A model generated the notes under the pieces. It saw nothing but the letters and a program-made list of their open reading frames with translations. It searched no databases and was not told where the DNA came from. A stretch of DNA of 63,482 bases, filler included, from Myxococcota bacterium (GTDB lineage: Bacteria > Myxococcota_C > UBA6777): assembly GCA_023150835.1 (NCBI GenBank). It is 3 parts of 3 records of this genome, joined end to end, with 100 filler letters (N's around TTAATTAATTAA, not from the genome) between each part and the next. Parts side by side here need not be neighbours in the genome. Positions count along the whole stretch, not along the records: positions 1 to 28,478 come from JAKLKB010000090.1; 2 more parts are not named here. One strand, written 5' to 3'. Positions within the stretch are counted from its first letter, which is position 1. Each line of letters begins with the position of its first letter. Positions 2,015 to 32,101 of the stretch are shown one piece after another. Made by a program: the position numbers and the translations under genes.

Positions 2015-2042
2015 GACCTCCGTCCCAAAACAAATCGATGTT

Positions 2043-2165
2043 AAACCCCCCGTGTTCGCACCCGTCCAAGCGGCAGCGCCGTTGTTTTGAAAAACGGCTG
2101 TTCGCCCCGCCAATACGGGGTCAAGGGGCGACAGTCTATGGCGGGGCATGGTACCTCGCCCCACA
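2043..2165 (+). repeat. structured dispersed element family C, copy 1
   Basis: CCCGTGTTCGC...CAAGCGGC...TTTGAAAA...CCGCCAATACGGGGTCAAGGGG...GCCCCA block pattern shared with 9 other intergenic copies. Confidence 0.85.
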
Positions 2166-2210
2166 CAACAGAACGACCGCGATCACACCCAAAGGAAAAG
2201 GAGCGCAACC

Positions 2211-4328: not shown

Positions 4329-4552
4329 CATCGGTCAATCGGAGGCTTTGGAGAGCGATTGCGGCTTTTTTTCAAACGCTCGTCATTTTTTTGTTGACGG
4401 GGTTCGGTTCGTCGTGTAGACCGCCGCGCATCCTATCTCAGTATTTCACCACCAAGGGAGTTCCTTTCTGCAAACCTTCAACACTTTGTGCGTTTGCGTT
4501 CACGCTCCCGAAAGCATCGTTCGTCCCTTTTTTCCAGTCCAAGGAGACTACC

Positions 4553-5698: not shown

Positions 5699-5764
5699 TC
5701 TAGTTCCCACTCTACTCTTCTCTCCCCTTTATACGAAATCCGCCCGTTGAGTTATCGTAAAAAT

Positions 5765-5846
5765 GTAGGGGCAGCCCCCTGTGGCTGCCCAAGAATCGGG
5801 CGTCTACGTACTATCTTACGATCACACATCACTCGGATATCGTATT
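5765..5846 (+). repeat. REP family A with a conserved ~55-nt extension (ATCGGGCGTCT...CATCACTCGGATATCGTAT)
   Basis: The extension recurs at ~42968-43034 (+) and ~34576-34659 (-). Confidence 0.8.
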
Positions 5847-5902
5847 ACTCTGCTCTTCTGCCCCTCTCCCCAGTTTGTTGCTCTGCTCCATTTTGTTTTT
5901 TC

Positions 5903-6028
5903 TTTTGGGGTGCTACCCCACACCCCGCCATAGAACTGCCGCCCCTTGACCCCAGCATCGGCGGAACAAGCACACGTTTTTCAAACGAACGTCCGTGCCG
6001 CTTGAACGCTTGCGAACACGGGGTTTTT
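5903..6028 (-). repeat. family C element, copy 2
   Basis: Same block pattern on the minus strand. Confidence 0.85.
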
Positions 6029-6103
6029 CTCCACAAGCCACCCGACCCTCGCCTTCTTCCGCTTTTTTCTCCCCCCGTTTTTTTCTCCCCGTCCGTGTTT
6101 TCC

Positions 6104-6183
6104 GTGTTTTTCGTGGACTGTGTTTTTCGTGGACTGTGTTTTTCGTGGACTGTGTTTTTCGTGGACTGTGTTTTTCGTGGACT
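6104..6183 (+). repeat. perfect tandem repeat, 5 x 16 bp (GTGTTTTTCGTGGACT)
   Basis: Read directly; no spacers; lies between convergent genes. Confidence 0.95.
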
Positions 6184-6241
6184 CTTCTTTCTGTGCCTCA
6201 CGAAGCGCGAAACTCCCGCTGGTCGTATATGTTAGGCTGCC

Positions 6242-11056: not shown

Positions 11057-14000
11057 TCACCCCTCTTCCCTAGCCTCTTCGATCTGCCCCTCTTTCCGAG
11101 CCTCTTCGATCTGCCCCACAGTTCGGGCCTCTTCGATCTGCCCCTCTTTCCGAGCCTCTTCGATCTGCCCCACAGTTCGGGCCTCTTCGATCTGCCCCAC
11201 AGTTCGGGCCTCTTCGACACGCCTTTCGTGCCGGATTTCTTCGAGCCACCCTCCCCACGCAGCCAAGGTTTCACCCACTTCATCCAACGCAAGCAGACCC
11301 GCCAAAAGACGGAAATACTCGCGATCTTTGCTGTGCCGATTGCCCTGCTCACCCGCCACCAAACGCTTGTGCATCTTGCGCATACGCCGCAACGCCTCCA
11401 ACACTTGGTGATGTTGGGCCAACGCCCCTTGAAAAGCTTCGCTGTGTTCGTCCAAAGCTTCAAAAGCCTGCTTCCACGTCCAAATACGTTGCTCTTCGCC
11501 AAACGGCAACGCCAAAAACAGCCGCCTCGCCTCGCGGTACGCTTCGGGCCATCGCTCCTCAAAACGATCCAAAGCCGTCGTGCGCGACGACTGTTCCGTC
11601 GACCAACTCGATGTCCGTTGCTCTTGTATCGCGTGCTCTTGTTCCGCTTCGTGCCAAACGTGCGCCGCCACATACGCCAACCATGTACCCTCTCGAACTT
11701 CCCCGATATCCGTGATCTCCGCAGCACGCGATCTTGTTCCCATCTCTTCTAACAACGCCATCACCTCTGCCAGCCATTCTTTGCGCATCTCTGCCCAAAC
11801 TTCCTCTCGATCCTCCCCCTCCCCATGCTCCCTCAACAGATAACGCGACTCTTCCTTGATGTGATGTTGCAACGTTGCTTCGTAATAGCGAGGAAAAAAG
11901 CTCGCCATCTCCTCCTCCGAGATCGTCCGAAAAAACCACAGCAAGGCCGCCATCTGCGCGGGTCTCCCTTGCCGCATCCCCAACGAAAGATCTGCTTTCA
12001 GAGACGAATACTGCGGAAAACATCGCCTCGGATCGATCCGAAACGTCCGAACAGCGGCCATCTCCCCAGACAAGGGACCTTCCCCAAACCATGAACCTTC
12101 CCCCTTCGCGGCTTCTTCCGCAAGCAAGGTGTCCACACCTTCCGCAAGCAAGGCCAACTCTGTCGGCCAAACCACCGACAAACGCCGCAACACCTTGGCC
12201 AAACCCACCGGCCACACAGGCACAGCCGCCGACCAACGCCCCGTCGAAGCCGAACGCTCTTCGCCTGTCGTACGCGATATCACCCGAACATCCCCATCCA
12301 CCGCACCTTCAACACGACGACTCATCGTCAAACGCTGCAATGACTCCAACAACTGTCTGCGGATCTCTTCGACACGCCAGATCTTGATCGTCCGCAACTT
12401 GGACTCCAACAAGAAGAATTGGCGCAAGATCTCCGTCACGTTTCGCAAAGACAACGCTCGCACCAAGTCACGCAACAACCTGCGCCGCCCCTTGATCTCT
12501 CGATCAAACGCTTGATCTTCCAACTGCAAGATGCGGTAGATGCGCTCTTTCGCTTGATCGCGATGCTCGTCTCTCTTTTCTTTGCTTTTTTCGAGCAGAA
12601 TCTTTTCCAACAACCTTTTGCTCTCGTCACGCAAAAGCTTCCGTTGCTCCGCAAGACTCCGCGTAAAATCATCCCGCTCAAACGCCTCCCTAACTTGCGC
12701 ACCTTCCGTCGCTTCCTCCCAACGACGCATCATATCCTCAAGATATCCACCCTCTCTTCTTTTTTTCTCCAGCGCCTGTGCTTCTCGACGTGCGGCTTGC
12801 ATACTCTGCTTGTAGTCTGCCAACAGTACCGCAAACTCCCTCCACGCCGCTCGTTGCTGTCTTCTCCCCTCCCACACTTCCAACGTTCCCCTCAACCACG
12901 CAACCTCTTCTTTACGCCCCAACTCCTTGCCATCCAAAACCTTGCGCAGATGGCCTACATAACGCGGCTGTTCGTTGGAGGCAAACCGATACAGCTTTGA
13001 AAAAAACACCTCCAACAAGGCCGATGCGTTGGGCAGATCAAACAAGGCCACCAAAAAACGCCGCTGCGCCGCCTCTTCGCCCTCCAACGCCTGCAACACG
13101 CCCTTCACGCTCACGGGCTCTGTCTTCATCAACTCGATCGTATGCGCCACCAAAAAATCCTGCTGCGCCTCTTCGATCAATGGAACACTCGCCGACTTGT
13201 AAGCCGAAAAGATCGGCAGAAAACGATCGTAGATCCCCAACAATGCGCCTCGTTGCTTTGGATCAAACGATGCCGCCTGCACGCTCACCTTCTGCAAGAT
13301 CTGTTGGCTATGCTGTAAAAACACCGGTAACAAACGCCGTAAGGGCCTCTGCTCTAGCGCATCCAACAACCGACGCAACGTCTCGACAAACCGCTGCGGA
13401 TCGCGACCCATCTCCCAAGAACGCGAACTCCAAAAAGCATCCGCATGTTGCCCCATCTCCAAAAAACGCAACGCCCAATCCTCTCCGATCGCCTCGCAGG
13501 TATGGCTCCTTTCCGCCCACTCCCCCAACGCCTCGACCGTCCCTTCCAAAGCAACCCTCAGGTAGTGCTCAGGTCCATGCTGTTGCAACGAACCTCCTTG
13601 CCAAGGCAAGATCGCCAACCGATACGCGATCTCCATCCGCAACGACACGATATGCTGCAACAAAAATTGGTTTGGCTGCTCCTGCTTAAACAACAACGAC
13701 TCCGCAAGCTGGATATGCAAAAGCGCTTTCTCAGGAGCCGTATCTGCGAGCTTTTCCGCCATCAAGCGCGCTGACAAGATCTGATCGTCCTGCTCTTGAA
13801 ATGAATATCCCCCGTACTCCGTACAAAAATCATCGATCTCCCCCTCCCAAACATCCCCCACATCCAACGCGATCCCACGCAACAAACCTGCGATCACACC
13901 TTGCTCCCCATGTGCCGAAAAGATCACCAGCCGCTCTCTCGAACGACTCAGCGCGATCCGCACCAGATCGATCGATTGACGCAAACGCAACAAACGCAGC

Positions 14001-18457: not shown

Positions 18458-19114
18458 ATGTTGCCGTCACTCTCTCCTCCACCGACGCAAGGCCCTATCC
18501 CATCGGCTCCAACAGAGCATGAACACGATCTTGCGCTCGCCACGCGCATCCTCGCAGGAGAACGCAGCGCATTTGCCCAACTCTACGAGGCTTGCGCTCC
18601 TGCTCTCCTGCGGCGACTCACCCGCATGACGGGGTCGATCGATCACGCCGAAGACTGCTTACAACAAGTCTTCGCGGAAGCCCTGCGCGCCTTGCCACAA
18701 TACCGAGGAAAAGGGCGTCTTGAGGCTTGGCTTGAACGCATCGCCACCCATACCGCGATGGGCTGGTATCGCAAAAAGTACCGCTGGCGCTCATTTGTCG
18801 AACAAGTGGTCGAGCAGCTCACCCCCGAATCCACGCTCCCTCAGCCCGACCCCTTGCCCGAACAAATTTTTCTTCACGAGGAGATGAAAGCCGTGGTGTG
18901 GCAACTTCTGGATCGACTCAGCCCTCGAAAGCGCATGGCTCTCGTGTTGTGCGATCTCGAAGGACGCACCATCGAAGAAGCTGCCGAACAGATGGATATC
19001 CCCGTCGGTACGGCGGCTTCTCGTCTCTTTCACGCACGTCAAGACTTCCGAAAGATCGCCCTCGCCGAACTGCGTCGTCAGGGCCTTGATGTGGGGGATT
19101 GGATCCATGATTGA
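18458..19114 (+). CDS. ECF-type RNA polymerase sigma-70 factor
   Basis: Region 2 AEDCLQQVF...LEAWLERIA; region 4 LDRLSPRKRMALVLCDLEG...EAAEQMDIPVGTAASRLFHAR. Confidence 0.92.
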   Translation: MLPSLSPPPTQGPIPSAPTEHEHDLALATRILAGERSAFAQLYEACAPALLRRLTRMTGSIDHAEDCLQQVFAEALRALPQYRGKGRLEAWLERIATHTAMGWYRKKYRWRSFVEQVVEQLTPESTLPQPDPLPEQIFLHEEMKAVVWQLLDRLSPRKRMALVLCDLEGRTIEEAAEQMDIPVGTAASRLFHARQDFRKIALAELRRQGLDVGDWIHD

Positions 19115-20438
19115 TCACACAAACAAACAAACCACCCCAAAAACGTCTCCAACCCCCGTTCTCTCGACCTTATGGGCGTCGGCCTCTTTGCGCGAAACCT
19201 ACGACGCTTGCCTTCCCTCCCCAGAACAAGAGCAAGAAAGCCTCGCCAAAGTTCGACGCCTGCTATCTCAAGACTTTTCGCCCTCGCCCAGCACTTCCTC
19301 CAACACATCCCCAAAACGGCCTTGGTTCCGCATCGCATGGGCAAGCATCGCAACCGTCGGAGCCTTCGCTTTTGTGCTTTTCCTCTGGCCGTATCTCGAA
19401 CCCCTCGAACCCTTCACTCTCCAAGGCATCTCCCCCACACAAACACAAAAAGACGGTTCGACCCATTTCCAAACAGACCAATCCACCGCAACCATCGCCT
19501 CCAAAGGCCACTGGTCGGTCGTCGTGGCCCCACGCTCTAGCATCATCCTCCAACGCAAAGCCGCCCGAAACACCGCCCTCCAACTCGCACACGGCCGCGT
19601 CCAAGTCGCCGTCACTCCCCAACAATACGAGTCCTTCACCGTTCATCACAAACGCTGGCAAGTCCGCGTCAAAGGCACACACTTCGCCGTCTCACAACAC
19701 GCACACACCTTGCGCATCGAAGTTTGGACAGGACAGGTCGAGATCCACAACGCCTCTCACCCAGATCACTCCTCTCACCCGTTTCGCCTCAACCAAGGCG
19801 AAGGTGCGCACATCGACCTTTCCACTTCTCGCGTCCGTCGTTTTCCCGTCCCTCCTCTTTCGCTCCCTCCCCAACAGCACCTATCATGGGCCTCCAAGCT
19901 CTCTCCCACGCTCTGCGCACAATACGCGCTCGATCTCCCCGCTCAAACCAACCTTCCCGCCCCGCTACGCGCACAGATCCTCCAACACCTCCTCGCCTCC
20001 CTCCTCTTCCGCAGCGAGCCTTCTCTCTGGCTCCCCTTGCTCGAAGCACAACAGCGCCTCGAACAAGATCCCCTCGCCCAAGAAACCGCCCTCTATCTAC
20101 TCCTCCAACGCTGCTATTCCACCGCCCCCACCCGTTGCCTCCCTCTCTCCACTTGGTACATCGAGCACTTCGCCAAACGCGGGATGCGGCCCTTCCTTGC
20201 TCGAATCCACTTTCTCCGCGCCGATGCCCTCGCCTCCCAACCCCACTCCGCCAAACAAGGACTCCTCGAACTCAAAAGCTTCCGCGAAACCTTCCCCCAA
20301 GGTCTCGATCGCCGCCGCGCTTGTGATCGCATCAAGATCACACTCCAACACACTTCTCTCCCTGATCTGCGATCACTGTCCGAAGAGATCGGTGTAAAAA
20401 GTCTTTGGTTTTCAAGACACTGCCCCTTTTCAAAATAA
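19107..20438 (+). CDS. FecR-domain anti-sigma factor with TPR-like C-terminus
   Basis: Start overlaps the sigma stop (ATGATTGA); single TM; FecR motifs LAHGRVQVAV, VRVKGTHFAV and IEVWTGQVEI. Confidence 0.85.
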   Translation: MIDHTNKQTTPKTSPTPVLSTLWASASLRETYDACLPSPEQEQESLAKVRRLLSQDFSPSPSTSSNTSPKRPWFRIAWASIATVGAFAFVLFLWPYLEPLEPFTLQGISPTQTQKDGSTHFQTDQSTATIASKGHWSVVVAPRSSIILQRKAARNTALQLAHGRVQVAVTPQQYESFTVHHKRWQVRVKGTHFAVSQHAHTLRIEVWTGQVEIHNASHPDHSSHPFRLNQGEGAHIDLSTSRVRRFPVPPLSLPPQQHLSWASKLSPTLCAQYALDLPAQTNLPAPLRAQILQHLLASLLFRSEPSLWLPLLEAQQRLEQDPLAQETALYLLLQRCYSTAPTRCLPLSTWYIEHFAKRGMRPFLARIHFLRADALASQPHSAKQGLLELKSFRETFPQGLDRRRACDRIKITLQHTSLPDLRSLSEEIGVKSLWFSRHCPFSK

Positions 20439-20467
20439 AGCCCGCAGTACTGGTGTGATCGCAAAAC

Positions 20468-20520
20468 GTAGGGGCAGACCCCTGTGCTGCCCAACAACAG
20501 GGCGTTTACAACAAACCTTG
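20468..20520 (+). repeat. REP family A with extension CAGGGCGTTTACAACAAACC
   Basis: The same extension flanks the copy at 67-94 (reverse orientation). Confidence 0.75.
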
Positions 20521-20644
20521 GCGACGTTTCGATCACGCATCTCTCAAATATCGTACATCAGGTGTCCCAAACCAACAGCCCTGCCGCGAACACAGGGATG
20601 TTTGCCCGCAAGCCACCCCAATCAAAAGATCGCTCCACTCTTCA

Positions 20645-20760
20645 TAGGACTTACGCAGTTCGATACGAAAAAGGCCCATGTTCGGGCGCGGGCGGTTCGC
20701 GAACCGCCCCTACAACGGGTTGATTCTTCACGCTTTCCCTCTTCAACTGCGTAACTCCTA
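20645..20760. mobile_element. 116-bp MITE with 16-bp TIRs and 6-bp target-site duplication, carrying a REP-B
   Basis: Left end TAGGACTTACGCAGTT; right end (reverse complement) TAGGAGTTACGCAGTT; TCTTCA duplicated at 20639-20644 and 20761-20766. Confidence 0.85.
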
Positions 20761-20916
20761 TCTTCAAGCCATTCCGATCAAAAGATCGATCCACTTTTTT
20801 TGATAGATCGCCACCCCTCTCGCAACGTGTGGCGTGAATGAAAAAGAAACAGAGTCCAGTATGTCTCACCAACGCATACTCGCTCACTTCACAAACCAAC
20901 GATCTTACAGACAACG

Positions 20917-21648
20917 ATGCGTATCACTCTTTTTTTTCTCTTTTCTTTTTGGTTTCTTTGTCTCCATCTTGGCTGCGCGATCTTCGTCGATGGAAATGGT
21001 AAGATCTCCGAACAAACCCTTCCCATCGACAACTTTCAGACACTTCATCTTGATTATACTTTTCAAGTCAACGCACAGCCCAACGCCGCATATCGCGTCG
21101 TTGTTCGTGCAGATGAAAATATCTGGCCTTTTTTGGACATCAAAAAAACCAATGATCAAACGCTTTTTCTCGGAAGAAAAAGTACGATCTTTTCAAACAC
21201 CGTCAAAGGAAGCCTCGAAGCAACGGTGGCCATGTCCTCGTTTTCTTCGGCGAAAGTGACCAATGCAAGCCGACTTACGCTGGGAGCCTTTGCTTATACC
21301 GAAACTCTTACGCTCGATATCATCGGTGCTTCCGAATGTTCGGCCACTTCGCTTTCAGCGAACAGTGCGCAGATCAACGTCTCAGGAGGCAGTCGGCTCA
21401 GCCTTGGTGGGAACATCGCAACGCTCAAGATCGAAGCTTCTGGAGGAAGTACGCTCGATCTCAGCGGACTGACCGCACAGATCGCCGAGATCACGCTTTC
21501 AGGAAAAAGCCAGATCAATCACCTACAATTCGCAAACAACGGTCGACTTCGCGTCCGATTATCGGGCGCAAGCACGCTGCGTTATACAGGTTCGCCCGAG
21601 ATCGAGATCCTCGAAAACTCAGGCGGTAGCCAAATCATTCAACAATAG
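20917..21648 (+). CDS. GIN/DUF2807 (head GIN domain) lipoprotein
   Basis: Lipobox-like LGC; VDGNGKI, ADENI and repeated SGGS/SGAS beta-helix strands. Confidence 0.85.
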   Translation: MRITLFFLFSFWFLCLHLGCAIFVDGNGKISEQTLPIDNFQTLHLDYTFQVNAQPNAAYRVVVRADENIWPFLDIKKTNDQTLFLGRKSTIFSNTVKGSLEATVAMSSFSSAKVTNASRLTLGAFAYTETLTLDIIGASECSATSLSANSAQINVSGGSRLSLGGNIATLKIEASGGSTLDLSGLTAQIAEITLSGKSQINHLQFANNGRLRVRLSGASTLRYTGSPEIEILENSGGSQIIQQ

Positions 21649-21667
21649 AAGTGGCGCGTTGGGTTTA

Positions 21668-21795
21668 TTTTGTGGGGTTGGAACCCCAAACCCCACAAGG
21701 GACTCACGCCCCTTGACCCCGTGAGGGGCGAAAAGATCGCAGGCTTTTCAAAACAACGACTCTGTCGCTTGGACGGGCGCGATCACGGCTTTTTT
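21668..21795 (-). repeat. family C element, copy 5
   Basis: Block pattern; compensated P1 CCGTGA/TCACGG. Confidence 0.85.
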
Positions 21796-22034
21796 GCCGC
21801 GCAACGGCTCAATAAACCACGAACAATATCTCGCTCTTCTCCTCTTTTTGGGGCTTGGCAGAGCCCTGATGTGGTCGTCTTTCTTGAAGTGAGTTGACAA
21901 CCTACAGGAAAGACGGCCACTTCCCTTTCGGGAAGACCTTTTCTTCTCTGCACACGGCCCAGATTGCTCAGATTTGTTCTGATATGTAAATAGATCGTTC
22001 TCTTGCAGCTTTTTCTATCAAGAAACGAAGCATC

Positions 22035-22162
22035 AAAACCCCCCGTGTTCGCGAGGCTTCAAGCGGCACGAATGTTTGTAAAAAAACCTCCGTTCACCCC
22101 GCCAAGTCGGGGTCAAGGGGCCAGCGGTCCCTTGCGGGGTTTGGTACCTCGCCCCATAAAAC
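22035..22162 (+). repeat. family C element, copy 6
   Basis: Block pattern; inverted relative to copy 5. Confidence 0.85.
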
Positions 22163-22223
22163 AAAAATAAAACCAACCCGCTATGTTCACAAAACAACAA
22201 ACCACCACGAAGGAGTCTCTCCA

Positions 22224-23117
22224 ATGAATACCTCATTTTCTCGTTGCCCGCGCACCCGAACCGACAAAACTATTTTCGAGATACTTTTCTCAAAAGCCCT
22301 GTCGATGGTGCTTTTCTCTGTTCTTGCGGTGCTTGTGATCGGATGTGGGCCGGGCCTTGTGGGTTCAGGCCCCACGATCACACAAGGGCTTTCGATCCAA
22401 GGCGTGCAACGCATCATCGTCCACGATTCCCTCAACGTACACATCTCCTACAGCGAGCAAGAAAAAGCCGATCTATCGGGCCATAGCAATCTGCTCCCCT
22501 ATTTCAAACACGAGCAAGTAGGCGACACGCTGAACTTGCGACTGCATCACGGGGCGCAAATCCTCGAAGGTGATCTGACGGTGGTGCTTGCCCTTCCGCG
22601 ATTACGCGAGCTGCGCGTGGTCGATGGCAGTCGCGTTCATCTCAAAAGGCTCGAAACGCGGGGCGATCTGCGTCTCGATTTCTCAGGAATGTCCGATATC
22701 CGAATCGATCTGCACACCGACGCACAAGTCGACATCGACATCAACGGCAGCAGCCGCGTCCAAGGGCAGCTTCGCGCCAACGTCATCCGATGGAAACTGA
22801 CGGGAAACAGCCGCGCTTTGGCCCGCGTCCACGCCGACCAAAACCACCTCGACGCAAGCGGTAGCAGTTGGGTGGAATTTGTGGGAGAGAGCAACCTCTT
22901 TCAGGTCGGATTATCGGGAGGTAGCAAAGGCTTCTTCTCTTCGCTCAAGGCCCAAGAGATCGACGCTCATCTCAGCGGCGCAAGCCAAGGCATCGTCAGC
23001 CACGACGGCAGCTTGCGCGCCCTGCTCGAAGGCGCAAGCAAGCTGTTTTGTCGCGGACAACCACATATCGAAAAACTCGACACCACGGGCGGTTCTGTCC
23101 TCGAACCCATCCAATAA
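22224..23117 (+). CDS. GIN/DUF2807 lipoprotein, paralog of 20917-21648
   Basis: AAGGAG RBS; VIGC lipobox-like; GSGP, SNLLPY and SG(A/G)S repeats. Confidence 0.85.
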   Translation: MNTSFSRCPRTRTDKTIFEILFSKALSMVLFSVLAVLVIGCGPGLVGSGPTITQGLSIQGVQRIIVHDSLNVHISYSEQEKADLSGHSNLLPYFKHEQVGDTLNLRLHHGAQILEGDLTVVLALPRLRELRVVDGSRVHLKRLETRGDLRLDFSGMSDIRIDLHTDAQVDIDINGSSRVQGQLRANVIRWKLTGNSRALARVHADQNHLDASGSSWVEFVGESNLFQVGLSGGSKGFFSSLKAQEIDAHLSGASQGIVSHDGSLRALLEGASKLFCRGQPHIEKLDTTGGSVLEPIQ

Positions 23118-23379: not shown

Positions 23380-24558
23380 TCAAGCCATCTCGACAACGAC
23401 GGAAGCGCCCATCCCACCGCCGATGCACAAGGTCGCGAGGCCGCGTTTCAACCCATGTTGTTTGAGGGCGTGGAGGAGCGTGACCAAGATCCGCGCACCG
23501 CTCGCACCGATGGGATGGCCCAAAGCGATTGCACCGCCGTGTACGTTGGTCTTGGCGGGATCGAGGCCGAGTTCTTTGACCACAGCGAGGGCTTGGGCGG
23601 CGAAGGCTTCGTTGGCTTCGATCAGATCCAGATCGCCAACCGCCCAACCGGCCTTTGCAAGGGCTTTTTGGGAGGCAGGGATCGGCCCGATACCCATGAC
23701 TTTGGGATCGACTCCTGCGGTGGCATAACCGCGCAAAAAGGCCATCGGCTTGAGTCCCAAAGATCGGGCCTTTTCAGCGCTTGCGAGGATCAAAGCAGCG
23801 GCACCATCATTGATCCCCGAAGCGTTTCCTGCTGTCACACTTCCGCCTTTTTTGAAGGCGGGCTTGAGTTCAGCGAGTTTTTCAAACGTAGTGGCGCGGG
23901 GATGTTCGTCTGTTGCGAAAACAACGGGTGCGCCTTTGCGTTGGGGGATCTCGACGGGGACGATCTCTTCTTTGAAAGCGCCCGAAGCGATGGCTTGCGC
24001 AGCACGCTCTTGGCTGGTCAACGCGAAACGGTCTTGTTCTTCGCGGGAGATGCCGTATTGTTCGGCGACATTTTCAGCGGTGATGCCCATATGGATATCG
24101 TGAAAAGCATCCCACAAACCATCGTGGATCATCATATCGCGCACTTCGCTGTGGCCCATCCGAGCGCCCCAACGCGCACCATCCATCAAAAACGGGGCGC
24201 GGCTCATATTCTCGCAGCCGCCTGTCACCACGATATCTGCATCGCCTGACTGGATCGCTTGTGCGCCCATCATCACCGAACGAAGGCCCGATCCGCACAC
24301 TTGGTTGATCGTAATCCCCGAAACGCCTACAGGAAGGCCGCTGCGAACAGCCACTTGGCGCGCCACATTCTGCCCCAAACCGCCCTGCAAGACACAGCCA
24401 AACACCACGTCATCGACCTGTTCTGCCGAAACCCCCGCTCGCTTGAGTGCTTCGCGCACCACGATCTCGCCAAGCTGGGCCGCCGAGACCTCTTGCAAAC
24501 TCTTCCCAAATGCCCCAATCGCCGTACGTACCGCGCCAAGGATCACGATCTCTTTCAT
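23380..24558 (-). CDS. atoB: acetyl-CoA C-acetyltransferase (thiolase)
   Basis: NQVCGSG catalytic Cys, [12 protein letters not shown] and CIGGGMG motifs; GGAGG RBS. Confidence 0.95.
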
Positions 24559-24590
24559 CAAATCAAGCCTCCCAAAAAAAACGCCTACAC

Positions 24591-24677
24591 CGCGCTCAGC
24601 CCGCTGCCTACGCCTCTTTTTACGCGCTCGGCTCGCTGCCTACGCCTCTTTCTACGCGCTCGGCTCGCTGCCTACGC
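24591..24677 (+). repeat. 32-bp tandem repeat (~2.7 units) in the thiolase upstream region
   Basis: CGCGCTCGGCTCGCTGCCTACGCCTCTTT(T/C)TA, period 32. Confidence 0.9.
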
Positions 24678-24902
24678 TCTCTCGTGCCTCCCTTATCACG
24701 ATCCCCCACCGCTACTGTCAAGAGGCTCCATCCATTTCGCCAACACGATCTCGCCACACCCGCTTATACCATCGTGTAATCGGGGGCTTTGCCTGCAAAC
24801 CTCGTCGCCTCCGCTCTGGAGATCAAACAAATGACTGTGCTGCATGAAAGACGGCGAACGCGAAGCTCTGAAGGAGAGTGAATCGCCTTGCGTTTGCTCT
24901 TG

Positions 24903-25292
24903 TTACAAACGTAGTGCTGTCTCTTCTGTTTGCGTGAGATGAGCAAAAGAACACCGTTGGCCTCGATCAAACAAAGCATCTTCCTCTTTCAACAGCCAAG
25001 CATAAGAAAAGATCGCGTCAATACTTCCCCCCAAACCATTCTCGATCCGCCATAATGTCGAGCAAGAATAGCCTTTCGGCAACATCTCCACATCCGCCAA
25101 AAAGCGGCTTAACTTGGCGATCTCACCCAACGTCCATCCCTCCTTCTTCATCGGTTTTTTTCGAAAGACTTCAAGGTCGACGTCTGCTTTTTGCAAAGTG
25201 TCGAGGATCTCCAAACGAGGAAACAACATCCGCGCTCTCGCGACTGCAAGATGGTCACCGATCTCGGAAAGGTAGGCATTCAGTTTGTTCAT
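24903..25292 (-). CDS. atypical XRE/cHTH transcriptional regulator, paralog A
   Basis: IG..L..AR...GWTLGEIA...S..TL.RIENG..GS...I..YA..L...LF pattern with insertions; clear paralog of 27194-27538. Confidence 0.7.
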   Translation of the reverse strand: MNKLNAYLSEIGDHLAVARARMLFPRLEILDTLQKADVDLEVFRKKPMKKEGWTLGEIAKLSRFLADVEMLPKGYSCSTLWRIENGLGGSIDAIFSYAWLLKEEDALFDRGQRCSFAHLTQTEETALRL

Positions 25293-25451
25293 CTTTCGTT
25301 CCTCACTCTCAGCGTGTTCGAGAAAAAAAGCATCCGCAACCACGGTACTCGCCGAGAGAAGTGATCCAAAAGCAACACTTCGGGTGAACAAATTTACTTT
25401 TTTACGCCCCCTCGCTCGAAAGAATACGATTTATCCCCCATCATCCGATGT

Positions 25452-26573
25452 TTATCGAATTTTACGGATCTCAGATTCCGCGATATTGCAGTAGTGATCG
25501 ATCTTTTCACGGTACGTCTTTTTCTCGCTCATCGCAGAGATAGGCCGCAACAGCTTTGGACGACCAATGGCTCCTGCCAAACGCTCGATTTCTTGTTCTC
25601 CGCAACGCTCCAGTCCGGGAGAGTGATCTATGCAGATATTGTGTAACTCCTTCATACTGCAAGCAAAATGACATGGAGGTGGCTGAGATCCAAAGCGTCC
25701 CAAAAAACGACAACGTTCTCGACAAATGCTTCCACAAGCACGCGCAACGATCACTCGCCGTTTACAGATCTCTTTGTAATCCATCACAAGATTCGGCCAT
25801 ACAGGACGCAAGATGCTTTGGCAGATATCTTGGCTCATAAAACACGAAGAAGCCAACAACAACGACAACAAGCCCAAGATCCCAAGCCAACGCCTCCAAC
25901 GAAAACTTCGCTTTTCTCGCCCTTGTAACCACTCGATCAATTCTTTGATTTGTTTTTCTGGGAAAAAGATCAACAATAATTTATCTTCTATCGACCGAGA
26001 CTTTTTCGCAAATCGCAAAGTATCCAGCGACTGTACTTGCTTTGGCCAAAAAACCGCCTCAACGCGCTCTTTTTGTCTTTCCAAAGAAGGTGCCAGCGCG
26101 TCGTAGCCCGAAGCTGGCAGCAAAAAAACGGTGTCGCCAAGAAGCGGGTTGGAGCCGTCCATCTCGCTTACCGATGAACTCAAAAGAATCTCCAACTTTT
26201 CCGGTAGCATCGAAGGAACAGAAACACCTCCGTCTGAAAAAACCAGCCCAGAAGCCCATACATTCGAGCGCGACAGCCGAAAAGGACGCACACAATCCGC
26301 TGCAGCCAACAAACAAGACAACGTTGCGGAAGCTCCGCGCCATTCATGTGCCAACGTGGTATTCGAGGACGGATATTTTTTCCACCAGAAACGCAAAGCA
26401 TCGTTTTCTTCTGGGAAAAAAGCTCCAAAAGCCTGCCTCGCTTGTGGCAACGCGAAAGCTTCGGACGGAAATAACTCATACCCTTTCGGGACATCAGGGG
26501 TTTTCGTCACGCAGATTTGGGCATACCCAATCTTTTTGTTGGGGAGAGCCAAAGGAAAAAAAAGCGACGTCAT
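25452..26573 (-). CDS. Lon-like (S16) protease domain, TM helix and Cys-rich extracytoplasmic domain
   Basis: WRGASATLSCLLA / VWASGLVFSDGGV...PEKL / VFLLP align by eye to Lon DGPSAG / VAMTGEI..G.V...EK / IILP; TM WLGILGLLSLLLASS; about 8 Cys in the C-terminus. Confidence 0.65.
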   Translation of the reverse strand: MTSLFFPLALPNKKIGYAQICVTKTPDVPKGYELFPSEAFALPQARQAFGAFFPEENDALRFWWKKYPSSNTTLAHEWRGASATLSCLLAAADCVRPFRLSRSNVWASGLVFSDGGVSVPSMLPEKLEILLSSSVSEMDGSNPLLGDTVFLLPASGYDALAPSLERQKERVEAVFWPKQVQSLDTLRFAKKSRSIEDKLLLIFFPEKQIKELIEWLQGREKRSFRWRRWLGILGLLSLLLASSCFMSQDICQSILRPVWPNLVMDYKEICKRRVIVARACGSICRERCRFLGRFGSQPPPCHFACSMKELHNICIDHSPGLERCGEQEIERLAGAIGRPKLLRPISAMSEKKTYREKIDHYCNIAESEIRKIR

Positions 26574-26597
26574 CGATCACTCCTTCGATTGCGTGAT

Positions 26598-27104
26598 TTA
26601 GCAGTCTTCATCTTTGCTAAAGACCATCACACGAAAAGGAGATTGAAGAGGATCGAAATGAAGTTGTTCGACAAAAAGGATCTCTTGGCCTTCCATCTCT
26701 CGACCGAGAGGTAAGGTACAGATCGGATCATCCACCTCCTCGCCAAGATAAAAAGCCAACCACCATCCGTTCGGGCTTGGTTCCGTCGCTTTCCATGTTA
26801 AATCCAAATAGCCTCTGCCGTCCGATGCTCTCTGCAAATCCAAACGGAACTCAAATTGGCCAAGATGCCAAGCAGAAAAATCTACCTTTTTTTCCAAGCG
26901 CTCTCCTCCTGAAGCAGAAGATAATCGAACCTGTCCTTGAAGACACCAAGGAGGCTGAAATTCAAAAGGATTGGCTTCTGGTGTTGCAACGAGCAGTGGC
27001 ATCTCGCCGTGTTGAATGGCTCGGACGGCTTGTGGAGGAAGAATCCCTCGCGCCTGTAAATGCTTTGACCACCGCTGGAGAGGAGCAAAAAAATCTGACT
27101 TCAT
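26598..27104 (-). CDS. hypothetical protein (beta-rich C-terminal domain)
   Basis: 168-aa ORF with AAGGA upstream, co-oriented within the cassette; no recognised family. Confidence 0.7.
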   Translation of the reverse strand: MKSDFFAPLQRWSKHLQARGILPPQAVRAIQHGEMPLLVATPEANPFEFQPPWCLQGQVRLSSASGGERLEKKVDFSAWHLGQFEFRLDLQRASDGRGYLDLTWKATEPSPNGWWLAFYLGEEVDDPICTLPLGREMEGQEILFVEQLHFDPLQSPFRVMVFSKDEDC

Positions 27105-27193
27105 GGTTTCTGTCCTTACTTGTTCATAGAATGAAAAGGTAACCTTCTTTATAAAAAAGAGAGCGTGAAAATCTTTCTATCTCTTATTTATTT

Positions 27194-27538
27194 TCATTTT
27201 AACGAAATATCTGGATATGAAAATAACTCGTTCTCTGTATTTAAAATCCAAGCATACGTATAAATAGATTCCATACTTCCTCCTGCACCTCTTTCGATTC
27301 TACGAAATGTTGCATAAGAATAACATTCTGGCAACATTTTAATATCCTCTAAGAAACCATTGAGTGCAACGATCTCCGAGAGACTCCATCCGACATTCTC
27401 ACTTCGCTTGAACGTTGCGGTGTCCAACAGATGCTTTTTCAACGCGCTTGTCACTTCCGCACGTGGATCGCGCATATTTCTCCGAGCAACAGCAAAATAC
27501 TTCCCTATATGAAGCAAATATTTGTCCAATTGATCCAT
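27194..27538 (-). CDS. atypical XRE/cHTH transcriptional regulator, paralog B
   Basis: About 40-45% identical by eye to 24903-25292; AT-rich. Confidence 0.7.
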   Translation of the reverse strand: MDQLDKYLLHIGKYFAVARRNMRDPRAEVTSALKKHLLDTATFKRSENVGWSLSEIVALNGFLEDIKMLPECYSYATFRRIERGAGGSMESIYTYAWILNTENELFSYPDISLK

Positions 27539-28118
27539 CTCTCACTTACCTTTGTGTTATAGGATGATGGTGGTGCTATTTTTAATAGCACTCCCCGATC
27601 AAAATAAGCACAAATACGCAGCAAAAACCTCGGAACATCCGAGAATTGTTTTTTTTGAGCGCAATTATACACAAAGGGGAGCGCTATAAACATCTATTTT
27701 GCGAGAAAATTTTAAACAACACGCACCGAGCCGGGAGCCTGCCTCTTGTGAACAGAATAGTACACACAAAAGCGATCTCGATCTTTTCGCCTCATGAAAA
27801 AAACGGCCAAGCGAACTATCGCCTCTTTATGATCGCGAGTACTGTGCACTTCACGAAGAAAGTCGTCCACAATATGCAGCGCAAGAAGCTTGGGGCTCGG
27901 GTGAAAGATCACGTTGTTTTCTTGCATACCACCGAGCAGGGCGCAGCGTTGGAATGTTGTGAGGAGGATGTTTACAACGAAGGCAACCGCATCGACAACA
28001 AGTGATACAAACGAAGTCGCAGCGATGACTGCGCACCGACGAGCAAACGTGGACGTACCAAGGAGCCGACAAGGCCATCTAGCGACCACACGCAATGGAG
28101 ATGAACAAGCAAAGACAA

Positions 28119-28149
28119 GTCCGTTTCGGCGTGGGCGTCTGAAACGGAC
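28119..28149. terminator. hairpin GTCCGTTTC...GAAACGGAC, possible minus-strand terminator
   Basis: 9-bp perfect outer stem; U-rich tail on the minus strand is imperfect. Confidence 0.35.
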
Positions 28150-28397
28150 AACGAAACCAAATCAACGAAGTTTTATCGCAGAACTCCACTTCCAACAACC
28201 GCGTTGTGAAAGCCGTCAAACGTACCGCTCACCTTGATGGTTGAAGATCTGCGGCCTGCCGTGTCGGTGTATTTGGTCAGAGTCAACAATTTTTCATCAG
28301 ATGAAAAGACAAGAAGGCAACGATGAGGGTACAAAAAAACGAAAGGTTGAAACGCAAACCAACCTATGATCAAACAAAGCCACGGAGATTTTGTTTC

Positions 28398-28478
28398 ATG
28401 GAATTCAAAAATGCACTCGGAGTACTTTCTATTGCAGCCATTTTCGGAATAACTGCACTCTATTTCTCGTCCTCATCG
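28398..28478 (+). CDS. 5' end of a secreted/membrane protein truncated by the contig end
   Basis: GGAG upstream; MEFKNALGVLSIAAIFGITALYFSSSS is signal-like. Confidence 0.55.
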
Positions 28479-28578
28479 NNNNNNNNNNNNNNNNNNNNNN
28501 NNNNNNNNNNNNNNNNNNNNNNTTAATTAATTAANNNNNNNNNNNNNNNNNNNNNNNNNNNNNNNNNNNNNNNNNNNN
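28479..28578. other. artificial contig linker (N44-TTAATTAATTAA-N44)
   Basis: Six-frame stop linker flanked by Ns. Confidence 0.99.
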
Positions 28579-28875
28579 GCTCCTCCCCCTGCTGCGGCTT
28601 TTACACCTCCTCCTCCCCCTGCTGCGGCCTTTACACCCCCCGCACCAGACTTCGCGCTTACTCCCGATCGAAACTATCTTGCCAAAGCCCTCGAAGGCTC
28701 GCGCAAACGCTTCCGCCACCCTGCCGCTGCCCCTTCCTCGGCAGTCGAAAGCGCTCAAACCGAGTACATCCGCCAACTTTCACAAGACGTCATCACCCGC
28801 ATCGCTTGGGAAGTGGTCCCCGAACTCGCCGAGATCATTATCCGCGAAGCCCTTTCCAAACAACCCCGCTCCTAA
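28579..28875 (+). CDS. romR: 3' fragment of a RomR-like response regulator (not in the ORF track)
   Basis: Frame from 28579: APPPAAAFTPP...YIRQLSQDVITRIAWEVVPELAEIIIREALSKQPRS*, matching the RomR C-terminal IEKIAWEVVPQLAETIIRE motif as recalled, preceded by a Pro-rich linker. Confidence 0.8.
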   Translation, partial: APPPAAAFTPPPPPAAAFTPPAPDFALTPDRNYLAKALEGSRKRFRHPAAAPSSAVESAQTEYIRQLSQDVITRIAWEVVPELAEIIIREALSKQPRS

Positions 28876-28985
28876 TCCCCCCATGCAAGTGTTCCTCACA
28901 GATACACCACACAAACAGCTTGCGACTTTCCACCCCCTCCCTTCCCCTTTGCGTAACATCTCTCGGAAAAAAGAAGGCTGATCGC

Positions 28986-29468
28986 ATGGAATGGCTAATT
29001 CGTTTACGACTGAGTGGTATCGTGGTGTTATTGGGCCTTTTCGTCGGAGGCATCGGGGCCTTGGTCGGAGCAAAACTCCCGTTTTGGTTGATCGGCTTGT
29101 TGATCTTTGGTGCGTCCATGTTGTTTTTGCCCGTCCCACGGCTTCCACACGCTTATTCACAAGAGGACTTGGAGAAAGAACTCCATGATATGCAGCGCGC
29201 CCTCTCCGAGATCCGCCTGCTCGAAGAAAAACTCACTCCGATCCAACAAGAGATCCAAGACGCTGGCCTCCTCAAACAAGAACAGATCAAAGCCCTCGAT
29301 CTGCGCTTTCAATCTCTGCGACAGATGACACCCGAAACCACCACCACCCTCCGAGAGCTGTTGTTTGGCGACCAACGGCGCACGCTTTCGGTGATCGTCG
29401 TGATGCTTTCTCTGATGGCCCTTGCCGCCGCTGGCTTTGTCCCAACCTTCGGACGTTGGCTCTTTTAA
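28986..29468 (+). CDS. small membrane protein with central coiled coil
   Basis: Two N-terminal TMs, a heptad region and a C-terminal TM. Confidence 0.7.
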   Translation: MEWLIRLRLSGIVVLLGLFVGGIGALVGAKLPFWLIGLLIFGASMLFLPVPRLPHAYSQEDLEKELHDMQRALSEIRLLEEKLTPIQQEIQDAGLLKQEQIKALDLRFQSLRQMTPETTTTLRELLFGDQRRTLSVIVVMLSLMALAAAGFVPTFGRWLF

Positions 29469-29496
29469 TCAGACAATAGGCCCATTCCGCACCTCG

Positions 29497-29707
29497 TAGG
29501 ACTTACTCTCCCCCCCTCGCCTCTTCGACAGAAGGGAGAGGGGGCCGGGGGCCGAGGACGACGCGACCTCTGCTCCTGTCAGATTCCCCCGCCTTTTGGG
29601 CTTTACAGAGAAGGTGTCCGAGCGTTCGCAACCTGTCGCTGCCCAAGCACAGGGCATCTGTGTACTCTCCTTCGATCACAGATCACTCGGGTATCGTCTA
29701 AGTCCTC
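29497..29707. mobile_element. degenerate MITE-like element with TAGGACTTAC / TAAGTCCT ends and an internal CTCTCCC...GGGAGAGGGG palindrome
   Basis: Ends resemble the TIRs of 20645-20760; no TSD visible. Confidence 0.45.
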
Positions 29708-29734: not shown

Positions 29735-32101
29735 GTGCTAGAACATCCATCCAAGACACCCGCCCCGTGGACCCACGCTGAACTCGATCAACTCATCACC
29801 AAAGCGTTCGAGGAAGACACCACAGGCGGCGATATCACCTCCGAAGCGATCTTCCGCCCTCACCAACGCGTCATCGCACGTGCGATCGCCAAAGCCCCTC
29901 TCGTGGTCTGTGGCCTCCCCGTCGCTGAGCGCGTCTTCTCTTGGCTCGATCCAGCCACCCGCTGGACCGCTCATTGCGAAGAAGGCCAACTCGTCACACC
30001 TCAAACGGTCCTGTTTACCGTCGAAGGAGCCGTACGCTCGGTGCTTTCCGCAGAACGCATCGCCCTCAACTTGCTCCAACATCTGAGCGGTATCGCGACC
30101 CACGCACGACAATTCGCCGAGGCTGTCGCAGACACACACACCCGCGTCGTCGATACACGCAAGACCTTGCCCGGGCTGCGGGTATTCCAACGCTACGCTG
30201 TCCGTGTCGGTGGATGCTTCAACCACCGCTATAACCTCGGAAGCGGCGTCTTGATCAAAGAAAACCACATCCGCGCCGCTGGCTCGATCGCACGCGCCGT
30301 CCAAGCCGCCCGACAATACGCCCCTCACCTCCTCAAGATCGAAGTCGAAGTGACGAATCTCGATGAACTCTTACAAGCCCTTTCTGTCCAAGCCGATGTG
30401 ATCTTGCTCGACAATATGTCCAATGAGATGATGCGCGAAGCCGTCCAATTGACCGACAAACGCGCCCTCTTAGAAGCCTCGGGTAACGTCTCCCTCGAAC
30501 GTGTCCGTTCTATCGCAGAAACGGGCGTCGACTTTGTCTCTGTGGGCGCACTCACACACTCCGTCCGCGCTGCCGATATCAGCCTGCTTGTTCACCTCGA
30601 AGACCTTTCCGCGAATCCCTCTCACACCGAATCCCCTGCTTTTCTTTCCACACAACCGAGTGCATCGACCTCCTCCCCTCCCCTCCAACCCGCCCCTCGC
30701 ACTTCGTTCTCCTCGCTCTCCCCCAAACAGGCCGATGCCTCCGCCATGACCTCGGATGCCTCCTCCGCCTCATCCAGCCCTCCTGCTCTGCCCTACCTGA
30801 ACCTTGACCAAGCCCTCGCCAAACAAGAAGCCCCCGTCGGTCCCTATCTCCCCGCTGTGCAACCCTTCTACATCGAAGTCGCCTCCGATCTCGCAAAGCG
30901 CCTTGGCATCCCTCCGTCTCCATCCCAAAAATCCGAACTATCCGACGCCATCGAAGCCGCAACTTCTCCATCCCAAAAATCCGAACTATCCGACGCCATC
31001 GAAGCCGCAACTTCTCCATCCCAAAAATCCGAACTATCCGACGCCATCGAAGCCGCAACCAAGAAACAGACCGATCCTCCCGCACAAAGCCTGCCTCCCT
31101 CGCGCTTTCAAGAGACCCTACTTCCAAAACTCCGAGAGTCTTTGTTTCTCTCACGAGGCATCCGTATCCCGAGTGGTCTGATCGAAGAAAATCCGCAGAT
31201 CCGCTCGGGGCACTTTGCTTGCTGGATCGAAGGAACCCACGCAGGCAGCGGCGAGATCCCCGTAGATCGGCTGTTGGTGGGTGCCACCCCTCAAGAACTT
31301 CGGATCTTTCAGATCGAAGGCCGTAAAACCCTCCATCCCCTCAGCATGCGTGATGCCTCATTTGTCGCAGAAACCCACAAAGCGCGGCTCAAAGAAGCCT
31401 ACATCCCGATGTGGAACGCCGAAGAACTCCTCGTCCTCCATCTGACCGCGATCTTGGAACGTCACGCCGAACGCTTCCTTGGCACACAAGCCCTGCGCGC
31501 CGCACTCGATATCGTCGCTCATCACGAGCCTACACTCGTCGCACAAGCCCTCGATCGCTACCCGCTCAGCACGCTCCGCCGCATCCTCTTGTTGCTCGCC
31601 GAAGACCGCCTCTCCTTGTGCAACCTCCACCGCATCCTTGAGTCGCTCCTTGAGATCCCCCTCGATATCCAAGATATCGAACCCCTCGCAGACGCCACGC
31701 GCCGATCCATGCGGCGATATCTGTGCCAGCCCTTCGCTGTTCAAGAAACCCAACTGCTCGCCTATAACCTCGCCCCCCACCTCGAACTTCTGCTCCAACA
31801 CCTTTTCCTTGGGCGTCCCCTACCCGAAGGGATCTCTGCCCCCACAAGCATGGCCCCGATCCAAGCACTCTACAGCACCTTACAACGGCGCTTTCGGGCC
31901 CTACCTTCGAGCGCAACCCTCCCGCTGCTGCTGGTTCGCGATCACGCCCTTCGGCGCCCCCTCCAACGTGTCCTTCAACGCGCCTTTCCTTACTGCGGCG
32001 TCTTGTCTTGGCAAGAGATCGATCCCGATTATGACGTGATGATCATCGAAACCTTGGATCACGACGTCCTCGAATTTTCATCCCACAAAGATACCCCATA
32101 A
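29735..32101 (+). CDS. nadC: NadC (quinolinate phosphoribosyltransferase) fused to an FHIPEP/FlhA-SctV-like cytoplasmic domain
   Basis: aa 1-~288 carry EDTTGGDITS, AERIALN, DTRKTLPGLR, NHRYNL, IKENH, EVEV, ILLDN and EASGNV. aa ~375-780 carry PFYIEV...LRESLFLSRGIRIP...HAERFLGTQ...LLAEDRLSLCNLHRILESL...LRRPLQRVL...VLSWQEI. GGAG RBS before the GTG. Confidence 0.9.
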   Translation: MLEHPSKTPAPWTHAELDQLITKAFEEDTTGGDITSEAIFRPHQRVIARAIAKAPLVVCGLPVAERVFSWLDPATRWTAHCEEGQLVTPQTVLFTVEGAVRSVLSAERIALNLLQHLSGIATHARQFAEAVADTHTRVVDTRKTLPGLRVFQRYAVRVGGCFNHRYNLGSGVLIKENHIRAAGSIARAVQAARQYAPHLLKIEVEVTNLDELLQALSVQADVILLDNMSNEMMREAVQLTDKRALLEASGNVSLERVRSIAETGVDFVSVGALTHSVRAADISLLVHLEDLSANPSHTESPAFLSTQPSASTSSPPLQPAPRTSFSSLSPKQADASAMTSDASSASSSPPALPYLNLDQALAKQEAPVGPYLPAVQPFYIEVASDLAKRLGIPPSPSQKSELSDAIEAATSPSQKSELSDAIEAATSPSQKSELSDAIEAATKKQTDPPAQSLPPSRFQETLLPKLRESLFLSRGIRIPSGLIEENPQIRSGHFACWIEGTHAGSGEIPVDRLLVGATPQELRIFQIEGRKTLHPLSMRDASFVAETHKARLKEAYIPMWNAEELLVLHLTAILERHAERFLGTQALRAALDIVAHHEPTLVAQALDRYPLSTLRRILLLLAEDRLSLCNLHRILESLLEIPLDIQDIEPLADATRRSMRRYLCQPFAVQETQLLAYNLAPHLELLLQHLFLGRPLPEGISAPTSMAPIQALYSTLQRRFRALPSSATLPLLLVRDHALRRPLQRVLQRAFPYCGVLSWQEIDPDYDVMIIETLDHDVLEFSSHKDTP
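30917..31060 (+). repeat. 3 x 48-bp in-frame repeat (SPSQKSELSDAIEAAT)
   Basis: Read directly. Confidence 0.95.

Follow-up and report, generated by a model that had tools for sequence, protein, structure and literature searches.

A rare cassette of four genes in a Myxococcota bacterium, with a membrane-anchored Lon-fold protease as part of a candidate signalling module

The cassette described here lies in a stretch of 63,482 nucleotides, filler included, from a Myxococcota bacterium (GenBank assembly GCA_023150835.1); this whole stretch is called the window in the following. Four genes on the minus strand, which we call D, C, B and A in the order of reading (Table 1), code for a predicted XRE-like helix-turn-helix (HTH) protein, a soluble protein to which no family could be assigned, a membrane protein with a protease domain, and a paralog of the first protein. 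The cassette is real and it is conserved, though rare and as yet uncatalogued, and the mechanism proposed for it is inferred. Its central component is protein B. Judged from a structure model and from the sequences of its relatives, the N-terminal ~220 residues of B have the Lon proteolytic fold with an intact Ser82-Lys126 dyad and no ATPase module, and peptidase activity is predicted for them. In our judgement the chances are even that the cassette is a self-contained transmembrane signalling module which acts by regulated proteolysis. Full-text searches of the literature, which covered few subscription-journal papers, found no description of such a module.

An earlier note, made from the sequence of the window alone, had singled out these four co-oriented reading frames, the low GC content of their DNA and the kinship of the first and last genes, and all of this was borne out. 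The GC content is 0.463 for 24850-28478 against 0.559 in the left flank and 0.556 in the right flank. Proteins A and D, which the note had put at ~40-45% identity, are paralogs with 44% identity over 108 aa (E 3e-32).

The Lon-fold protease B and its membrane anchor

An exhaustive HMMER search among 1.84 billion representative sequences found 6 relatives of B (P0003-P0008; 329-434 aa, E 6e-24 to 2.7e-6), all from metagenomes or metagenome-assembled genomes (MAGs) and 24-32% identical to B. The family is rare: it comprises 7 clusters among the 1.84 billion representatives. The alignment of the 7 sequences has 14 invariant columns, and G80, S82 and K126 are among these. A profile scan of 185,579 species genomes with an alignment of 4 B sequences gave 12 pattern matches and 0 confirmed relatives, tblastn of B and of C against 72,556 plasmids gave no match, and a word-seeded sequence search with B recovered the query alone.

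The model made by AlphaFold2 from the 7-sequence alignment has a block at residues 1-220 in which the predicted local distance difference test score (pLDDT) is mostly 83-95, with brief dips at ~131-150 and 181-200. A Foldseek comparison of the model with the PDB gave 8 matches at E<=0.001, and among the matches listed every one is the proteolytic domain of Lon or BrxL. They cover E. coli, LonA, B. subtilis LonBA, M. jannaschii, A. fulgidus, T. onnurineus, human LONP1, MtaLonC and the C-terminal domain of BrxL, with a probability of 1.00, E-values of 4.4e-4 to 7.9e-3 and template modelling (TM) scores by target of 0.50-0.61 for stand-alone domains. The Lon-like character which the earlier note had ascribed to this part of B thus reappears as a confidently predicted Lon proteolytic fold over residues 1-220. 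As a lead only, a language model places residues 1-222 near a cluster in which 19% of the members carry Lon_C (score 0.87) and near another in which 81% do (0.78), and the ten best named neighbours all agree in family or clan.

The position of the dyad was obtained from profile comparisons. Searched against the PDB, the B-family profile finds MtaLonC only (5 distinct sequences, E 0.0017-0.041), and places S82 on residue 582 and K126 on K625. The latter is the catalytic lysine of MtaLonC according to the available part of PMC3391209, and the title of PDB entry 7ev4 reads S582A. An alignment by hhalign of the B family with E. coli Lon alone is weak (E 0.089) and has the right register; with the protease domains of E. 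coli Lon and YcbZ together the probability is 77% and E is 2e-5, the register being unchanged. In this register S82 falls on the Ser of DGPSAG in E. coli Lon and K126 on the Lys of EKL. In the B model S82 is found just ahead of helix 83-95 and K126 within helix 123-132. The motifs WRGASAT and LPEKLEI, from which the earlier note had read a Ser/Lys dyad, are thus present, and the dyad is in register and invariant in all 7 sequences.

The protease fold of B starts at residue 1-3, and in 7/7 members there are only 75-95 residues ahead of the G-x-S motif. Because the fold begins at the first residues there is no space for an AAA+ module; neither an AAA+ domain nor any other Pfam family is found in B at E<=1, and in this respect too the earlier note was right. 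B likewise has no match in NCBIfam or PADLOC (E<=1) or in PHROGs (E<=0.1), and phmmer against the PDB gives 0 hits at E<=10. In LonA an Asp three residues before the Ser locks the catalytic lysine, as stated in the available part of a preprint (bioRxiv 10.1101/2021.12.06.471393). This residue is Arg in 6 of the 7 members of the B family, and the control of activity in B must therefore differ from that of LonA.

Each of the 7 members has exactly one 19-aa window above 1.6 on the Kyte-Doolittle scale, at positions 221-274, and in each the number of Lys and Arg is higher in the 15 residues before the hydrophobic segment than after it. Since there is no signal peptide and since Lys and Arg are in excess ahead of the segment, it is a reasonable inference that B is oriented N-in/C-out, with the protease domain in the cytoplasm and the tail outside. 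The single transmembrane segment and the Cys-rich tail of the earlier note are both confirmed, as one hydrophobic segment at 229-247 and 10 Cys in a tail of 126 aa. It should be noted that an earlier prediction of CalpL, a Lon-fold protease to which we return below, as a membrane protein turned out to be wrong (bioRxiv 10.1101/2021.12.06.471393, in the part available).

The tails of the family are 65-193 aa long. A juxtamembrane Cys and a core C-x3-C-x3-C-x(7-16)-C-x3-C are common to 5 of the 7; in the other two (P0005 and P0007) the alignment shows few Cys and no such motif. One of the seven members carries DUF5648 (E 3.2e-8). Because of this member and of the two tails without the Cys motif, the outer domain is, as judged by the alignment, swapped within the family. 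Such a pairing of a constant enzyme with changing outer domains is typical of sensors. In the B model the cysteines of the tail are located on two consecutive predicted helices, 266-292 and 300-315, which suggests a helical hairpin stapled by disulfides; as the model of the tail has low confidence, both the hairpin and its disulfides are conjecture.

The partner proteins and the conservation of the gene set

Neither C nor A and D contain a hydrophobic segment. Protein C has no match in Pfam, NCBIfam or PADLOC (E<=1) or in PHROGs (E<=0.1), and a C profile gives 0 hits in the PDB. A language-model search of the Atlas with C returns 'hypothetical' clusters only (0.93); the closest cluster that has a name, in which 15% of the members carry zf-HC2 (0.78), is at chance level.

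The sequences of A and D follow an XRE-like pattern, with a helix containing G-x6-R, then 'GWS..E', and then 'S....RIE.G...S...YA..L'. Both proteins have insertions, one of ~25 residues after helix 1 and a shorter one before the putative recognition helix. The AlphaFold model of D is all-helical, with a pLDDT of 90.3 and a predicted TM score of 0.83. In the PDB the top three Foldseek matches of D are HipB (probability 0.94-0.98, E 0.24-0.36, TM score by target 0.60-0.67) and further XRE regulators are found lower down the list, the HipB and XRE matches together spanning E 0.24-3.7; in BFVD most of the matches with a name are to XRE or Cro/CI proteins (E 0.6-3.6). D has no match in Pfam, NCBIfam or PADLOC at E<=1, and a word-seeded sequence search with it recovered the query alone. 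It is probable but not established that A and D are XRE-like HTH proteins with insertions, and DNA binding is predicted for them. The earlier note had called them XRE-HTH proteins: the pattern and the insertions were seen again, while the matches to curated models, to profiles and to folds all fall below threshold.

The most distant relative of B, P0008, is encoded on a contig of a marine MAG, here called L001, and the same gene set is found there on one strand and with tight spacing (Table 1). The order regulator-C-protease in L001 is that of D-C-B in the window. In L001 the second regulator module is fused with the first in one upstream protein, whereas in the window it is the separate gene A downstream of B. 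This fusion of both modules in one MAG protein suggests that A and D act jointly. Between the window and L001 the identity in the alignments is highest for C (41%), followed by the regulator modules (25-31%) and the protease (24%). When 7 proteins of L001 were compared with the window by tblastn, the three triad proteins alone gave matches. The flanks of L001 are unrelated to those of the cassette in the window, which are a thiolase gene on one side and the contig end on the other, and for this reason the module looks portable. The triad of HTH protein, unlabelled protein and Lon-like protease, for which the earlier note had proposed a comparison of gene neighbourhoods, recurs in the single relative locus examined.

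The surroundings of the triad in L001 contain some larger genes. Ahead of it, at 1839-8598, two proteins of 1115 and 1126 aa are encoded which have chance-level PADLOC rows only, and blastp between the two finds no similarity at E<=1e-3. After it, at 11226-12062, follows a DDE transposase of the IS5 family (DUF4096 6e-27, DDE_Tnp_1 2.5e-15).

Mechanism, known relays and rival explanations

With respect to the enzyme, the known system of most interest is CalpL-CalpT-CalpS. According to the available part of its description, an ATP-independent Lon-fold Ser-Lys protease without AAA+ is there joined to a sensor domain, and it is encoded together with a small partner, which CalpL cleaves, and a transcription factor, the outcome being a transcriptional response. 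In the cassette the corresponding activity is deduced from sequence and model, and of the relay the genes alone are known. The dyad of CalpL, S152-K193, has a spacing of 41 residues (bioRxiv 10.1101/2021.12.06.471393, in part) against 44 in B. The sensor of CalpL is a cytoplasmic SAVED domain which binds cyclic tetra-adenylate (cA4), and its partners are the anti-sigma factor CalpT and the sigma factor CalpS, which resembles the extracytoplasmic function (ECF) type; B instead has one transmembrane helix and an outer Cys-rich tail, and its partners are the 168-aa protein and two XRE-like modules. Pfam finds neither a SAVED nor a CARF domain in B at E<=1 and no sigma or anti-sigma match among A, C and D. 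An ECF sigma/FecR pair is present in the window at 18458-20438, 5 kb off and outside the conserved gene set. CalpL is not among the Foldseek matches listed for B.

With respect to the membrane, the cassette resembles BlaR1/BlaI and MecR1/MecI/MecR2. These have a membrane receptor with an outward sensor and a cytoplasm-facing protease, encoded next to the gene for the repressor which it inactivates, and the mec system has a third gene, coding for an anti-repressor, which gives the same three-gene layout and overall logic as in the cassette (PMC9834060 and PMC3406092, in the parts available). BlaR1 and MecR1 are zinc metalloproteases with a penicillin-binding sensor, whereas the protease of B is of the Lon fold and of no Pfam family, and the likeness is one of logic only. 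The membrane part of BlaR1 and MecR1 moreover spans the membrane several times, and their repressor is a winged-helix protein. In ImmA/ImmR and IrrE/DdrO a dedicated protease is encoded beside the XRE-type repressor which it cleaves; these systems differ from the cassette in that the proteases are soluble metalloproteases, and in having neither a sensor in the membrane nor a conserved third protein. The Lon family itself (MEROPS S16; LonA, LonB, LonC/MtaLonC, E. coli YcbZ and the C-terminal domain of BrxL) shares with B the fold and the register of the Ser-Lys dyad, and also the location of the Ser at a helix start and of the Lys inside the next long helix (PMC3391209, in part). It differs by its AAA+ or AAA-like module and C-terminal protease domain; B has no such module, the protease is N-terminal and the transmembrane helix comes after it. 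Because it lacks a SAVED domain, a sigma/anti-sigma pair and a metalloprotease, the cassette is, by this comparison, a member of neither the CalpL nor the BlaR1/MecR1 systems. By analogy its enzyme type and three-part relay are most like CalpL, and its membrane logic is most like BlaR1/BlaI or MecR1/MecI/MecR2.

The mechanism which we propose is as follows. A, C and D would reside in the cytoplasm together with the protease domain of B, and the outward tail would be the sensor, perhaps of redox state, of metal or of another ligand; the cysteine motif is the reason for thinking of redox state or metal. A change in the tail would switch the protease on, probably via an altered association of protease domains. 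The active protease would then cut C, which we take to be a bound intermediary (an anti-regulator or an adaptor, as CalpT is for CalpL). Alternatively, the long inserted loop of the regulators A and D could be the substrate and be cut directly, in the way BlaR1 acts on BlaI. Cleavage would alter the DNA binding of an A-D heterodimer, and the pair would probably autoregulate its own synthesis via the palindrome upstream of D. The earlier note had also arrived at a transmembrane proteolytic switch; the predicted topology fits such a switch, and for the cleavage, the substrate and the signal no support was found.

A more specific version of the proposal would make the cassette the example of an undescribed class, and this we regard as doubtful, if still a serious candidate. 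B would in that case be a one-component transmembrane transducer in which an ATP-independent Lon-fold Ser-Lys protease is run, via a single helix, by a small extracytoplasmic hairpin stapled by C-x3-C-x3-C...C-x3-C, a periplasmic sensor of redox state or metal. It would act on the 168-aa protein, the representative of a new fold family, and this protein would govern a pair of insertion-bearing XRE-like DNA-binding modules, split in the window and fused in the MAG.

Several observations weigh against the signalling proposal or against parts of it. Cleavage, binding, substrate, signal and target gene are all deduced and not experimental. The curated Pfam model Lon_C matches 0/7 members of the B family at E<=10, and the model of the tail has a pLDDT of 41-66. 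As to the regulators, Foldseek with D gives no match at E<=0.001 in PDB or BFVD. Pfam HTH_31 reaches E 0.056 on A, with 14.2 bits against a cut-off of 27, the rest of the rows for A being at chance level; on the A/D-type modules it is found on 1 of 4 (E 0.033). A profile search of the PDB with the A/D modules finds no XRE protein, the best match being RpoD (0.069). The co-occurrence of the genes rests on 1/1 relative loci seen, the neighbourhoods of P0003-P0007 being outside this count. A C-profile search, which needs shared 5-residue words, finds C of the window and two variants of C of the MAG, and no companions of P0003-P0007. By tblastn between window and L001 no effector gene is conserved beside the triad. 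Finally, the palindrome is a single site, at least one such match is given by 11 of 100 shuffles, and it is absent from L001.

Among other explanations the cassette could be a module of the toxin-antitoxin or abortive-infection kind, in which the HipB-like proteins A and D would be antitoxin and repressor, C or a fragment released by the protease would be an effector arresting growth, and the membrane protease would be the trigger. The location in a compositionally foreign island, the IS5-type transposase adjoining the MAG triad, the unrelated flanks of a module that looks portable at two loci, and the lack of a separate conserved effector gene would all suit such a role. So would the fold matches of D, of which the HipB antitoxins are the best, and the fact that the partner of CalpL was first described as toxin-like (bioRxiv 10.1101/2021.12.06.471393, in part). 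These HipB matches, however, reach E 0.24-0.36 only, and a variable outward domain fits the sensing of the environment better than the sensing of infection inside the cell. In PADLOC-DB 2.0 the four proteins of the window are without a match at E<=1, and the three triad proteins of L001 and five further relatives of the protease are without one at E<=0.1; there is no PHROGs match at E<=0.1, and tblastn finds neither B nor C in the 72,556 plasmids. The role in defence which the earlier note had considered thus finds no backing in PADLOC or PHROGs, and we consider the explanation unlikely.

A quite unlikely explanation, in our estimate, is that B is a processing or quality-control protease which cleaves secreted proteins or those of the membrane, or else processes C to its mature form, that A and D only regulate the operon without being substrates, and that nothing is signalled across the membrane. 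Most Lon-fold domains belong to degradative enzymes, all the fold matches listed are proteases of this kind, and a local regulator next to an enzyme gene is commonplace. General degradation by B is unlikely, on the other hand, because B has neither an ATPase nor an unfoldase. C and two regulator modules have moreover been kept with the protease across 24-28% identity while all other neighbours differ, and the tail varies among the members in the way sensor domains do. If B were instead a catalytically dead Lon-fold scaffold, it could tether C, the regulators or both at the membrane and control them by sequestration. Lon-like domains without active-site residues exist, RadA being cited in the available part of bioRxiv 10.1101/2021.12.06.471393, and the identity of B to active Lons is very low (9-17% in the fold matches). 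But only 14 positions are invariant across the 7 sequences, S82 and K126 are among these and lie exactly on the catalytic positions, and this scaffold is to our mind very improbable.

Metalloprotease sensors (BlaR1) and the cascades of site-1/site-2 proteases are known examples of transmembrane regulated proteolysis, and to our knowledge signal-activated Lon-fold proteases have so far come from cytoplasmic nucleotide-sensing systems (CalpL). If the signalling proposal is true, a Lon-fold protease wired to an outward sensor by a single helix would be a new and very compact design, with no ATPase and with two partner families which are recognised by none of the libraries searched. The cassette would be a small portable three-part switch, open to dissection and perhaps to re-use as a sensor. 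Its weight for general biology is smaller, as the family is so rare.

The locus and its surroundings

The Shine-Dalgarno-like motifs and the short intergenic spacers make the cassette operon-like. For gene A the ATG at 25292 is more likely to be the start than the TTG at 25391, because its Met aligns with Met1 of D and because it has GAGGA upstream. The GC content at third codon positions (GC3) is 0.37-0.53 across the four cassette genes against 0.58-0.72 in 9 of the 10 genes nearby, the exception being a DUF2807 gene (20917-21648) with 0.50. No flanking repeats which would mark a mobile element were found by the repeat search, and Rfam gives 0 matches at E<=1 on 24000-29500. The spacer that separates the cassette, which ends at 24903, from the thiolase gene, which starts at 24561, contains a tandem repeat with a unit of 32 nt at 24591-24682 (2.8 copies, 93% matches).

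Table 1. Coordinates of the cassette genes, of features in and near them, and of the corresponding genes in L001 (positions of the first eleven rows are those of the window)
Feature	Position	Strand	Description
Gene D	27194-27538	minus	114 aa; first gene of cassette; predicted XRE-like helix-turn-helix with insertions; AAGGT upstream
Gene C	26598-27104	minus	168 aa; soluble, no family assigned; AAGGA upstream
Gene B	25452-26573	minus	373 aa; predicted single-pass membrane protein with N-terminal Lon-fold protease domain; AAGGAG upstream
Gene A	24903-25292	minus	129 aa from ATG; paralog of D; longest open reading frame, to TTG 25391, 162 aa (24903-25391)
B residues 1-220, Lon-like proteolytic domain	25914-26573	minus	Predicted cytoplasmic; AlphaFold2 model and Foldseek
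Ser82 codon	26328-26330	minus	Candidate catalytic nucleophile (WRGASAT, residues 78-84); invariant 7/7; codon checked
Lys126 codon	26196-26198	minus	Candidate catalytic base (LPEKLEI, residues 123-129); invariant 7/7; codon checked
B residues 229-247, single transmembrane helix	25833-25889	minus	Hydrophobicity; predicted helix 225-255
B residues 248-373, Cys-rich tail	25455-25832	minus	126 aa, 10 Cys; predicted extracytoplasmic, candidate sensor
Perfect palindrome GTGCTATT-TTT-AATAGCAC	27573-27591		35-53 nt upstream of the ATG of D; candidate operator
TATAAT hexamer	27664-27669	minus	Candidate -10 box with weak -35; ~126 nt upstream of D
Tandem regulator protein, L001	8778-9503		241 aa, carrying one A/D-type module after the other; against D the two give E 2e-6 and 1e-4, against A they give E 2e-7 and 6e-4
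C homolog, L001	9484-9981		41% identity over 130 aa, E 3e-32
Protease (B homolog), L001	10001-10990		

The palindrome upstream of D has no second match in the window when up to 3 mismatches are allowed, and it is with low confidence that we propose it as a candidate autoregulatory operator. A promoter scan found 2 sites where 3.2 are expected, which is no excess, and the TATAAT hexamer is not among these. There are 11 terminator-like sites against 4.9 expected, none of them informatively placed. Between the candidate -10 box and the palindrome lies a GC-rich hairpin, CTCGGAACATCCGAG at 27628-27644, with T-runs on both strands, which may serve as a terminator in both directions or resemble an attenuator.

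The window is stitched together with artificial linkers, N44-TTAATTAATTAA-N44 with stops in all frames, at 28479-28578 and 56811-56910. These join at least 3 contigs, and adjacency and orientation across them are unproven. The cassette is ~940 bp from the contig end at 28478. At 28398-28478 a gene begins with MEFKNALGVLSIAAIFGITALYF and codes for a hydrophobic N-terminus before the linker cuts it after 27 codons. The earlier note had placed this divergent secreted gene possibly under control of the cassette, which amounts to speculation across 860 bp and a contig break. A decayed DUF2807 gene within 27539-28478 was considered and rejected (tblastn E 1.7 and 3.8). Past the linker an open frame at 28580-28875 opens with a 30-nt repeat (1.9 copies, Pro/Ala-rich), ends with ...VITRIAWEVVPELAEIIIREALSKQPRS and has no Pfam match.

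Two further regions of the window deserve mention. In the region 18458-23117 two DUF2807 (GIN-domain) genes, the first of them the low-GC3 gene at 20917-21648, come after the genes for the ECF sigma factor and the FecR-type anti-sigma protein (18458-20438). On the other side of the first linker, an open reading frame of 788 aa at 29735-32101 codes for a complete quinolinate phosphoribosyltransferase (QRPTase_N and QRPTase_C) joined to the C-terminal cytoplasmic part of an FHIPEP protein (FlhA/SctV-type), which covers profile positions 357-655 of 657 and has no membrane part. The part linking the two contains a perfect 48-nt x3 repeat at 30917-31059, and the frame is either an unusual fusion or mis-joined.

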